A stretch of 64,000 bases of DNA, taken from IMG/VR virus record IMGVR_UViG_3300033074_001499, positions 20,315 through 84,314 of that record. One strand, 5' to 3'. The translations under genes and the position numbers were made by a program. Source of the stretch: a virus. Its lineage: Duplodnaviria > Caudoviricetes. Below the pieces are notes generated by a model, which was not told where the DNA came from, made no database searches, and was given only the letters and a program-made list of their open reading frames with translations. Below, one piece after another: positions 18,149-55,877 of this stretch; the stretch's first letter is position 1, and every line of letters starts with the position of its first letter.

Positions 18149-19990
18149 TTAAAAATCAATTTCCTCGTCAATTTGACGAGGATTTTTGTCTAGCCAGTCT
18201 TCCAAATCGTAAAGACGATGGCTTTCATTGCAATAGTAGTAACGACCAGCATCAGGTGCAGTACGCCCAGACCAGCGACATTTAGTGATTTTCATCCGTG
18301 TAGTATTTCGTTCCACAGGGTCTTCAGCTTCTTTATTTCGCATGAAAAGCATATTACAAGAAGCACTTTTAAAGATTGATGATGAGCCTAAAAAATCTTC
18401 CTCATATAGTTCTGCTCCAGTAGAATTAGCTTGTGCACCGCCACTATTTTTACGAACATGGTTAATATTCACAAAAGTAACCTTGTGACTCTTAGTGAAA
18501 CCTTTCATCCATTTCATAAAAACAGCCTGACCTTCAGTTGAAAGACCATCCAATACATCTTGAAGCGGGTCAAGAATAATAATCTTACACTCACACTCAA
18601 TAACAAGACGACTGACTTGCTCTTGAAGGTCTTCTACACTACCGTCGCGTTCATCTACCAGTTTAAACCGATCAGAGCCATCAGAGTGACAGAACAACTC
18701 AAACTCTTTCTTCTGTACATGCTCTTGTAGTAGGAAATCACGTTTTTCTTCTACTGTTTCAATTAGATCAATTTTATACCCAACATGACGCGATAGAAGC
18801 TTAATCCCATATTCACCACTTTCAGATTCAAGACTTACAACACCAATTTTGTAAGGACTATTAAAAATCCAGTAGTAAATACACTCATCAATAATTGTAC
18901 TTTTACCGGCACCGCTCATTGACCCAAGATTTACAATCCTTCCAAGTGGTATACCCCCTGCCATAAGTTTCTGTGCTTTGTGCATAAATGGCGGAAGAGG
19001 AATTTTCTCAACAAGAGCACTTTCCATGATTTTATCGGGAAGTTCAGAACTCCCAACAATACCCACAGGTGAATATTCCCGAGCTTTATAATAGGCGTTG
19101 ATTACTTCTTTCTCTTTACCGGCTCCAAGAGCATCATTAGCATCTTTTTCGGAAATGTTCATAACAAATAGCTTCCGCTTAGGAACTACCTTAGAAACTT
19201 CTTCAAGAGCTTTCATACCCGCCTTATCTTGATCTGGCAGAAAGATGATCTTGTTAAACCGATTTAACCACTCATACTGCATTTGTAGCTGCTTATGTAG
19301 ACCACCCTCACCAATAGTAGAAGAAACTACAGGAACTTCTTTATAGCCTTTCGAAGTCATGTAATCATTCAGCATTTGGTAAGTTGCCATAGCGTCATGC
19401 TCGCCGGAAGTCACAACAACTGTATCAGACTGAGTATTCATGAATTTAAATTGCATAAACAAATCACAATCCTTACCAGTCTCCCCGTAAGGGCTAGTGA
19501 AGTCTTTTGGGTGTTTCCTCACTTTATAACCTGTTAGTTTACCTTCCTTAGTACAAGGATAGTAAGTGGCAGAAACATTCCCGTCTTCCTCGTTATATTC
19601 ATAACGAACGCCGAAAGGTTTACTCGTATCTGTACGAATCCCACGGTAACCTTTACTTTCTACACCAGTAGATGCTTTGATCTTAGCATGAACTTCATCA
19701 TTAAATTCTTTACCCACTAAATCCTCCCAATTAAACACTTCTTCTCGTTTATAACGCTCTGTATCACCAGTTATTGATTCGTAAATCTGCACAGCTTTTG
19801 GAAAGCTACAATTCTCCATTTCCATGATAAATTTAGCAGCATCCCCACCATCGTTACACGCCCCATAACACCAATAACTATCTTCATACACGTGAAGGGA
19901 TGGTGTAGCTTCTCCATGAATAGCACAACACGCTTTGTTATTAGAATTAACATGTCCGCAGTAGTGCTCGATGATCAATTTTATACTCAT
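18149..19990 (-). CDS. DNA primase-helicase (T7 gp4-like)
   Basis: N-terminal Cys/His Zn finger, TOPRIM (TSGEHDA, PDQDKAG), Walker A GSMSGAGKST, IILDPLQ, NHVRK. Confidence 0.95.
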   Translation of the reverse strand: MSIKLIIEHYCGHVNSNNKACCAIHGEATPSLHVYEDSYWCYGACNDGGDAAKFIMEMENCSFPKAVQIYESITGDTERYKREEVFNWEDLVGKEFNDEVHAKIKASTGVESKGYRGIRTDTSKPFGVRYEYNEEDGNVSATYYPCTKEGKLTGYKVRKHPKDFTSPYGETGKDCDLFMQFKFMNTQSDTVVVTSGEHDAMATYQMLNDYMTSKGYKEVPVVSSTIGEGGLHKQLQMQYEWLNRFNKIIFLPDQDKAGMKALEEVSKVVPKRKLFVMNISEKDANDALGAGKEKEVINAYYKAREYSPVGIVGSSELPDKIMESALVEKIPLPPFMHKAQKLMAGGIPLGRIVNLGSMSGAGKSTIIDECIYYWIFNSPYKIGVVSLESESGEYGIKLLSRHVGYKIDLIETVEEKRDFLLQEHVQKKEFELFCHSDGSDRFKLVDERDGSVEDLQEQVSRLVIECECKIIILDPLQDVLDGLSTEGQAVFMKWMKGFTKSHKVTFVNINHVRKNSGGAQANSTGAELYEEDFLGSSSIFKSASCNMLFMRNKEAEDPVERNTTRMKITKCRWSGRTAPDAGRYYYCNESHRLYDLEDWLDKNPRQIDEEIDF

Positions 19991-54337: not shown

Positions 54338-54553
54338 TTTTGTAGCCATTTTGGATTCCTCCTTTGTTTACGTTCTCTCATTGTACCACAAATTTCTACA
54401 AGGTCAACACACCATATCAAAAATATTTTTAACGAAGAGCTTGCAAAATTTTCAATACATGATATAATATGGCACATATGTAGAGAAATCTCTACTCGGG
54501 ATGTGTTGGGGGCTAACTGTAACGGGCGATTCATCCTTAAAGCAAACCAGGAA

Positions 54554-54836
54554 GTCAGTATATTGCAAACACCAGTCGAAAGAAAGGGGTGTTTCTGACA
54601 GCGAGTAAGATCGTATAAAAGCCTTTCAAGTAGAGTAATCTTACCAAACCTCTACCCGCCACAAGCTGTACCTACCAGACTTGTGTGAATCTTCTTGTCT
54701 CAATCGGAATGGCCTTTTGGTTTTTGTAGGTTGATGAGGTTGGAGATTCAGGATAAGACCGAATCCTTCGTCTTAGGCACAATTCTGTGTATGGCGAGGG
54801 CTTAGGAGTAATCTATCCTGAATTTCTGAACTCATC
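54554..54836 (+). ncRNA. Candidate pseudoknotted structured RNA
   Basis: Nested stems, GNRA loop, two 6-bp loop-distal pairings, 13-bp stem with G-U pairs favouring + strand. Confidence 0.6.
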
Positions 54837-54874
54837 GGAATGTATAACTATTAGATACTAAATTAGGAGAAAGT

Positions 54875-55420
54875 ATGAAATTTAAAGAGTACATGGAAAA
54901 CAGAGGTAACAATGGAATTTCTATTTTCGAATGTAAAGTGTTCGGTATAGAGAAGAGTAAAGGTTGGAAAGAGAGATATGCTGATCTAGAAATTACACAA
55001 AGTCAAATTAACAAAATAGTAACTTTTATGGATAAAAAGATCACAGCAAGTCCAAAAGTAAAAGGCAATATACGTTCTCTTCAAAAAAGAGAATACGTTG
55101 AGTGGGAAGGTAAATACTTATATCTGATGAAAAATGAAATTGGTAGGTTGAAAATTGGAATAAGTGAAGACCCGATTAAAAGATCAAGAGATATTACAAA
55201 TGCTGGTGGCATTTTAACTCAGTGTATTGCTTATTGGAAAGTCTCTAAATTAACCAAGGATGTAGAATCTTTCTTGCTTAAAAAATGGTATGAACATAAA
55301 ACTTATGGTGAATGGTTTGTATCAAATGCTTTCTCTATAAAAGACATAGAGTCGTCAATGCCTTGTGATTTTGAGAGATTGTTCTATAACGAAGAATGGG
55401 ATTGTTCCGTTTTTTACTAG
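54875..55420 (+). CDS. GIY-YIG (T5orf172-like) nuclease-domain protein
   Basis: YLYLM...LKIGISEDP.KR...E...GEWF. Confidence 0.8.
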   Translation: MKFKEYMENRGNNGISIFECKVFGIEKSKGWKERYADLEITQSQINKIVTFMDKKITASPKVKGNIRSLQKREYVEWEGKYLYLMKNEIGRLKIGISEDPIKRSRDITNAGGILTQCIAYWKVSKLTKDVESFLLKKWYEHKTYGEWFVSNAFSIKDIESSMPCDFERLFYNEEWDCSVFY

Positions 55421-55525: not shown

Positions 55526-55735
55526 ATGAAATGTTTAGCTTGTGACTGCTTCCTTAGAGAATCAGAATTGAATATGAAAAAAGAAGATGGTAGTTTTGAA
55601 GATATGTGTACGGATTGTCGTAGAATTTCATACGGATATGAGTACATGGAAATCAAAGAATATCAATTCCAACATCTAACAGAGATGATCCAAAACTACT
55701 TTTATATGAAAAATATTCAATCAGAATACGATTAA
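55526..55735 (+). CDS. Small zinc-finger protein
   Basis: MKCLACD...DMCTDC. Confidence 0.75.
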   Translation: MKCLACDCFLRESELNMKKEDGSFEDMCTDCRRISYGYEYMEIKEYQFQHLTEMIQNYFYMKNIQSEYD

Positions 55736-55737
55736 AC

Positions 55738-55767
55738 TTGACAAATACTAATAATATAGTATATACT
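55738..55767 (+). promoter_or_regulatory. Sigma70 promoter
   Basis: TTGACA-N18-TATACT. Confidence 0.7.
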
Positions 55768-55773
55768 ATAGCT

Positions 55774-55877
55774 TATATAGTGAATAAAAATATTTCTCCT
55801 AAATCACATGTCTTCTCCTTCATGTGATCCTCCAATAACCCTTGGTTATTTCTCCTAGCCAGGGGTTATTTCTTTTT
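55774..55877 (+). ncRNA. Candidate anti-Shine-Dalgarno sRNA
   Basis: Two hairpins with UCUCCU loops, last followed by a U-rich tail; own promoter. Confidence 0.7.

Follow-up and report, generated by a model that had tools for sequence, protein, structure and literature searches.

Comparative sequence analysis identified positions 54475-54845 of the window (the entire 64,000-nucleotide stretch of DNA analyzed here) as encoding a large structured RNA whose family had not been described before. The conclusion that these approximately 370 bases constitute a real, heavily folded functional RNA is strongly supported. Taken as a whole, our preferred reading is that the family consists of cis-acting structured leaders, and that the nuclease gene found beside the RNA in the window is a selfish insertion downstream of it; we give this reading a probability of about 0.55.

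Genomic context of the RNA

The phage is represented by an 84-kb IMG/VR record, and its large terminase is approximately 45% identical to those of the Pseudomonas phages ventosus and UAVern and of the phiPsa374 group. The RNA is located in a divergent intergenic region adjoined by the packaging module. The leftward genes end at 54349, and the 5' end of the RNA follows the rightward promoter by five bases. The following elements surround the RNA:

54380-54407, - strand: predicted divergent leftward promoter of the early and replication-side genes
54441-54468, + strand: sigma-70-type promoter (TTGCAA, 16-nt spacer, TG-extended TATAAT; 10/12 matches), with a predicted start near 54475
54844-54874, + strand: A+U-rich spacer, largely unpaired, with a short weak predicted hairpin, a Shine-Dalgarno sequence (AGGAG, 54865-54869) and no terminator

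An equivalent rightward promoter was present upstream of the RNA in every homolog read, and divergent promoters were annotated at the equivalent place by the depositors of the KIL1 record. No terminator-like site was found between 54475 and 55834, and a terminator-like hairpin was identified downstream of the RNA at 55834-55870; the transcript would therefore run through the folded region into the open reading frame (ORF) at 54875-55420. Because the RNA has no terminator of its own, it is predicted to be the 5' leader of the rightward transcription unit, positioned between this unit and the leftward early genes. Downstream genes in the window have their own promoters, at 55738 and probably also at about 55450.

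Structure of the RNA

The fold opens with a 5' hairpin and continues through helix P1 into a central domain held by three long-range pairings; the 104-nt arm P5 completes it. The original prediction had the element start at 54554; the actual start is near 54475, which adds P1 and the hairpin at 54480-54495, five bases downstream of the predicted start. All of the stems listed in that prediction were located by reading and by script at the positions it gave. The structural elements are as follows (L numbers denote the loci used for comparison):

54480-54495, + strand: H0, 5'-terminal hairpin of 6 bp with a 4-nt loop; a hairpin of different sequence occupies this place in all homologs
54498-54542, + strand: helix P1 (54498-54503/54532-54537) with a conserved internal segment, followed by UUAAAG; covariation in 8 sequences
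54554-54599, + strand: Pa, two-tier hairpin (54554-54558/54595-54599 and 54567-54573/54588-54594); both tiers compensatory in L032, with an equivalent in L025
54582-54627, + strand: PK3, pairing of 54582-54587 with 54622-54627, missed by the original prediction; covariation
54601-54655, + strand: hairpins Pb (54601-54604/54611-54614) and Pd (54630-54635/54650-54655), the loops of which kiss (PK1); covariation
54660-54731, + strand: hairpin Pc (54660-54668/54676-54685), the loop of which (54670-54675) pairs with 54726-54731 (PK2); covariation
54733-54836, + strand: P5, irregular hairpin arm (-47 kcal/mol when folded alone), with an internal-loop core containing GUAUGG (54789-54794)

Folding of the + strand of the window RNA gave -115 kcal/mol (z = -2.0), a value matched by 2 of 100 shuffles; the - strand gave -89 kcal/mol (z = -0.4) and was no better than shuffled sequence. 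In each of eight family RNAs, the stability advantage of the + strand over the - strand was 10-50 kcal/mol. Relative to shuffled controls, too, the + strand had the larger margin in most of them, the exceptions being L013 and L014. The - strand was no better than shuffles in most relatives as well as in the window. G-U pairs had been said to favor the + strand, and they were indeed frequent and strand-specific, with the first P1 pair being G-U in 7 of 8 sequences. These observations bear on the alternative that the conserved feature acts as DNA, in the form of a replication origin or packaging site built from inverted and direct repeats at the early/late junction. A divergent intergenic region beside the packaging module would suit such a site, as would the direct repeats B and C (see below) that flank a long palindrome. 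However, neither the strand-specific G-U pairs nor the failure of the - strand to exceed its shuffles is in keeping with a DNA element, and covarying non-nested pairings are meaningless for duplex DNA; we regard this alternative as improbable.

Comparison of homologs revealed covariation throughout the fold. For P1, 93.8% of cells in the eight sequences were paired, with changes on both sides at six of the eight pairs; none of 500 shuffles reached the observed score, and slid controls were 31-58% paired. The loop of Pa contains UCGAAA and the 5' strand of PK3. The original prediction correctly enclosed AAACACC/GGTGTTT within GTCAG/CTGAC, but the small TC-GAAA-GA stem that it drew in the loop is not conserved, the loop itself retaining UCGAAA. 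In the window, L032 and L025, PK3 occupies one and the same alignment position, yet each RNA forms it from a Watson-Crick sequence of its own. With regard to the first pseudoknot, the pairings 54605-54611/54638-54644 and 54630-54635/54650-54655 were present as proposed, but the topology was redrawn as a kiss between the loops of the 54601-54614 and 54630-54655 hairpins (PK1, 54605-54610 with 54639-54644). The kissing sequence, a complementarity with P ~ 0.008, changes compensatorily in L032, and the Pb and Pd stems differ in sequence yet remain paired in L025 and L032. The second pseudoknot stood as predicted; the 3' strand of PK2 lies just 5' of the long arm, its complementarity has P ~ 0.003, both of its strands change together in L032, and the Pc stem covaries in L025 and L032. 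The predicted long stem at 54733-54836 was also present, with its outer helix kept in L025 and L032. The length of P5 ranges from 78 to 143 nt among members, its GUAUGG-containing core is kept in nearly all copies examined (L012 differs), and covariation within the arm was seen in seven cultured-phage copies.

Each of the long-range complementarities consists of six Watson-Crick pairs (P ~ 0.003-0.008 compared with shuffled partner windows); over nine events, P was 0.003-0.15 per event. Overall, 11 helices, including the three pseudoknots, persist in the window, L025 and L032 despite the divergence of their sequences. An RNAalifold analysis of seven cultured-phage copies identified compensatory double changes at 27 of 73 predicted pairs, and the fold was also supported by the uncultured subgroup. 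These data demonstrate that the fold is maintained by compensatory evolution, and the covariation in many homologs strongly supports the original proposal of a functional non-coding RNA.

A lineage-specific repeat flanks P5

A short direct repeat was identified on either side of P5:

54697-54712, + strand: repeat copy B, a lineage-specific 16-nt motif recognized by sequence comparison
54828-54843, + strand: repeat copy C, the 5' half of which is the 3' strand of the outer P5 helix

B and C (12-16 nt) flank P5 in every member of the family, with the two copies alike within an RNA and different between lineages. The two copies are incapable of mutual pairing, and the search for a consistent pairing partner was negative. 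A search of the rest of the window, pertinent to the idea of a free guide, found no extra copies above chance. A CsrA/RsmA site was considered and rejected, as GGA is absent from the repeat in L004, L080 and ventosus. In the cultured phages, each copy of the repeat resembles a small hairpin with the same loop.

Distribution of the family

The collection of homologs called for by the original prediction yielded copies in both metagenomic and cultured-phage records. Protein searches with the nuclease identified RNA copies at L004 (with the near-identical variants L016-L019), L007, L012, L013, L014 (the same as L015), L025 and L032. Each of these copies is positioned between a sigma-70-like promoter and a related ORF, with fold z scores of -1.2 to -5.0, and the closest relatives of the window RNA are those of L025 and L032. 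Searches with RNA sequences identified L077, in which the RNA is followed by a DUF7831 gene, and L080, in which it is followed by an HNH endonuclease gene. A further homolog, reached via terminase relatives and synteny, was found in phage ventosus (MG018930.1) in an unannotated 870-nt gap at the equivalent junction; recognizable in this copy are P1 with its conserved internal motif, P2, the core of P5 and the B/C pair. When the ventosus copy was used as a blastn query, the RNA was detected in at least 57 cultured-phage records (56 Pseudomonas and 1 Pectobacterium). Six cultured loci were inspected, namely ventosus, phiPsa374, Bitten, Pyxpy02, KoPa-4 and XD2. Blastn searches of the cultured phages with the window, L077 and L025 RNAs gave no match. 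Scans of genome contigs revealed no real copy, with L010, L011, L078 and L079 representing chance matches; a gapped IUPAC pattern that matches L025 returned nothing from L025's own collection, and negative scans based on short blocks are thus unreliable.

An independent model of P5 (R2), built without window-type RNAs, matched L004 at E = 1e-4; its best match in the window was weak (E = 0.18) and fell at 54745-54826, the right place within P5. Homology between the window-type and cultured-type RNAs rests on synteny, architecture, short motifs, and the bridging position of L004 and the uncultured subgroup. The RNAs of the family are approximately 235-475 nt in size, and the lineage that carries them is one of myophages of about 85-100 kb, comprising Otagovirus and Flaumdravirus-like Pseudomonas phages together with uncultured relatives.

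In the cultured-phage records, the RNA region is mostly unannotated or lies under tiny hypothetical CDSs. For example, small hypothetical CDSs cover the RNA region in Bitten (L083:839-1627) and at KIL1_0035 (L087:856-939), several of them on the opposite strand; these GenBank CDSs are probably over-calls on a non-coding RNA gene. Phage XD2 (PQ288046.1) possesses a second full copy of the RNA (about 19040-19300; L090:1492-1750); a further sigma-70-like promoter immediately precedes it, and two ORFs lie downstream, one small and Cys-rich and the other DUF4326-like. Only one copy was detectable in the window phage. Several phiPsa-type records contained two blastn places. In related phages that lack the RNA, a conserved ORF of about 40 aa followed by a DUF6945/HTH gene was observed at the junction (L006:1650-1780, L020:830-955 and L023:825-950; the DUF6945/HTH gene was checked against Pfam in L006 only), and in L020 and L023 these two genes are followed by a T5orf172-type gene.

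The downstream nuclease gene

Two ORFs follow the RNA in the window:

54875-55420, + strand: GIY-YIG (T5orf172/MUG113) gene, 181 aa, with a helical N-domain (Pfam, AF2 model, structural matches)
55526-55735, + strand: small zinc-ribbon ORF with two CxxC pairs, the usual downstream neighbor of the RNA in the lineage

In agreement with the original prediction, the RNA in the window is directly 5' of the GIY-YIG gene. The encoded protein scored 21.8 bits for Pfam MUG113 (cut-off, 22.3), and its relatives at 32-63% identity matched PF13455 and in some cases also PF10544. Structural comparison of residues 76-181 of the AF2 model (pLDDT 95) gave GIY-YIG enzymes as the top three matches (HIGLE, Z = 7.4; Slx1, Z = 6.7; third match, Z = 5.9), with I-TevI and UvrC scoring below them, and Y83, R103, E131 and E146 were invariant in 50 sequences. 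As modeled, the protein has a GIY-YIG fold with the conserved Tyr, Arg and Glu residues. For the N-domain, there was no convincing structural match.

The original prediction had suggested, by analogy with omegaRNA/HEARO, that the RNA might serve as a scaffold for this T5orf172 nuclease, and a guide role was weighed alongside it. Several observations are consistent with such a role. The RNA is directly 5' of the nuclease ORF in eight lineages, the protein is small and lacks a recognizable DNA-binding domain, and comparison with L004 indicates that the RNA and ORF are exchanged as one unit between L004-type and window phages: sampled flanking genes are 96-99% identical and the promoter nearly identical, while identity falls to about 56% in the RNA and 32% in the ORF. 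After the nuclease stop codon, the L004 cassette has approximately 110 extra bases (L004:3477-3590), including a 9-bp hairpin, that have no counterpart in the window. The early association with the nuclease reflected an ascertainment bias, as these copies had been gathered through the protein. This nuclease is missing beside the RNA at the six inspected cultured loci, and at L077 and L080 the RNA has unrelated genes downstream; close relatives of the nuclease, in turn, occur without the RNA at L008 and L020-L024. A search with the RNA model near about 45 other T5orf172 loci found nothing; approximately 60 further full-length nuclease relatives lay outside the placed set. The nuclease tree is also discordant with RNA type, the window protein being closest to L007 and the window RNA to L025 and L032. 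In addition, the 5' end of the RNA is a self-paired hairpin, not a free guide, and there was no Rfam match to HEARO. The variable content of the site, the RNA-less relatives of the nuclease and the discordant phylogeny leave the scaffold or guide reading unsupported. The co-occurrence check recommended with the original prediction, which found the RNA and the nuclease each without the other, largely refutes it, and we consider it very improbable indeed.

Zinc-ribbon homologs were identified 3' of the RNA in L004, L007, L080, ventosus (L081:2258-2455, unannotated, 66 aa), Bitten, KoPa-4, XD2, Pyxpy02, phiPsa374 and KIL1; with the queries used, none was detected downstream of the RNA in L014, L025 and L032. 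In the six inspected cultured loci, the RNA is followed directly by the zinc-ribbon ORF, without the nuclease gene. The interval that separates the RNA from the zinc-ribbon ORF can hold a gene of the T5orf172 family, an HNH gene, KIL1_0036 or nothing, a presence/absence polymorphism at one locus of the kind expected of homing genes. Because the same RNA precedes an HNH gene, a DUF7831 gene or the zinc-ribbon ORF directly, comparison of gene order shows the GIY-YIG/T5orf172 gene to be an insertion of homing-endonuclease type that separates the RNA from this ORF, and not the partner of the RNA. T5orf172 genes are documented homing endonucleases found near terminase genes and at recombination boundaries (PMC10448857), a setting that fits the cassette swap between L004 and the window. 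Like the free-standing T5orf172 genes of ICP1-like and T5-like phages, the window gene encodes a GIY-YIG-type domain, is near the terminase module, shows presence/absence polymorphism and marks an exchange boundary between near-identical phages; those proteins carry CapR-type zinc-finger DNA-binding repeats, whereas the window ORF has in their place a helical N-domain of about 75 aa. In KIL phages, the insertion site is occupied by KIL1_0036 (L087:1187-1753), a 188-aa "putative DNA/RNA-binding protein" without a Pfam match, which may be a third kind of mobile gene.

Comparison with known RNAs

Folds of such complexity usually mark ribozymes, riboswitches or RNP cores. The Rfam check suggested with the original prediction was run against Rfam 15, and the element had no match: at gathering thresholds and at E up to 10, the window gave only tRNAs and chance matches such as mir-5408, and no family was matched by the relatives at E up to 0.1. 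The models of HEARO/IscB omegaRNA (RF02033), ROOL and GOLLD likewise found no match in the window or its relatives. HEARO/IscB omegaRNA is also large and pseudoknotted and likewise precedes a small nuclease ORF carried by mobile DNA, but the window protein is a GIY-YIG enzyme and not IscB, and the RNA has no free 5' guide; the obligate linkage to a cognate nuclease that characterizes HEARO is broken in L077, L080 and the six cultured phages. ROOL and GOLLD are comparable as large, ornate and intricate RNAs borne by phages and prophages, often near tRNA genes; the present RNAs differ from them in being shorter and in having a fixed promoter-proximal leader position.

Phage endonuclease genes often reside in group I introns. 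A self-cleaving ribozyme, or a ribozyme in the form of a degenerate group I-like intron associated with the mobile endonuclease gene, would account for a large multi-pseudoknot fold with the strictly conserved unpaired segments UCGAAA and GUAUGG. However, no ribozyme or intron family was matched in the Rfam searches above. The RNA is intergenic, not inside a gene, and it exists without any endonuclease gene. Only about 5 nt separate the ORF stop codon from the conserved flank where similarity to L004 resumes, which leaves no room for a 3' intron half. The element therefore has no 3' half and no host gene, and the absence of a match to RF00028 at E up to 10 agrees with the original remark that it lacks a recognizable group I core. 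A ribozyme is accordingly an improbable explanation. No paper describing the RNA was found, a statement that does not extend to the catalogue of a survey of 10,000 csRNAs, which lay outside the comparison (models of up to 151 nt; PMC10690425).

A possible role in transcription

The RNA was promoter-proximal in all homologs, and a second copy was present in XD2, not in the window phage. In phage HK022, putL and putR are located behind two early promoters, and the nascent RNA alone makes RNA polymerase resistant to termination (PMC9378689). The two promoter-proximal copies of XD2 recall putL and putR, which favors a cis-acting leader and places a put-like mechanism first among the specific options. 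A further hint is the terminator-like hairpin downstream of the window RNA. The family resembles the put RNAs in lying immediately downstream of early host-type promoters, in having no factor gene attached, in being part of the nascent transcript and, in at least one phage (XD2), in existing as two paralogous copies behind two promoters. A put RNA has two stem-loops in about 70 nt, compared with three pseudoknots in 235-475 nt for the present family, and the likeness is a guess at function, not a claim of membership.

By this analogy, the RNA would be transcribed from a strong host-type promoter as a nascent 5' leader and would act in cis, with the transcript that carries it or the complex transcribing it as the target. 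The folded nascent RNA would bind the RNA polymerase that made it, and the bound polymerase would resist pausing and termination through the downstream unit. The antiterminator role named in the original prediction may thus be counted as a live option, and put-like antitermination is the specific mechanism that we tentatively favor. Several points weigh against it. The put RNAs are 4-6 times smaller and far simpler, the downstream promoters noted above lessen the need for read-through, the window phage has a single detectable copy, and the lineage-specific B/C repeat is not accounted for. Within the cis-acting reading, the next option would be control of the stability or translation of the zinc-ribbon ORF message.

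In the main, if somewhat doubtful, rival reading, cleavage within the A+U-rich spacer would release the 5' part of the transcript as a stable non-coding RNA acting in trans. This RNA may form an RNP with the zinc-ribbon protein or bind a host factor, with B and C as paired binding sites. The size and tertiary complexity of the RNA are typical of stand-alone RNAs, a hairpin sits right at its 5' end, and the spacer that follows copy C is A+U-rich and largely unpaired. Synteny with the CxxC...CxxC ORF is kept even across inserted genes, a small Cys-rich ORF likewise lies behind the XD2 paralog, and the B and C motifs co-vary within each RNA. On the other hand, the RNA has no terminator or known processing site, and the zinc-ribbon ORF was not detected downstream in L014, L025 and L032. 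More speculatively, and with a low likelihood, the family could define a new type of large, self-folding RNA with which phages reprogram host machinery, either as an elaborate RNA-only antiterminator or as the RNA core of a zinc-ribbon-protein particle in which B and C would act as exchangeable specificity determinants.

Implications

The leader reading remains the one that we prefer, and two aspects of the finding reach beyond the window. Unrelated families of homing endonucleases have repeatedly settled beside a conserved RNA gene, an arrangement that can mislead guilt-by-association arguments of the HEARO style. The RNA itself is present in no fewer than 57 phages that have been sequenced and can be cultured; several of these phages are biocontrol candidates against Pseudomonas syringae. 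It has so far been left unannotated or been over-called as tiny hypothetical proteins. It represents a new complex fold in tractable phage-host pairs (P. putida KT2440 and P. syringae), in which its role is directly testable.
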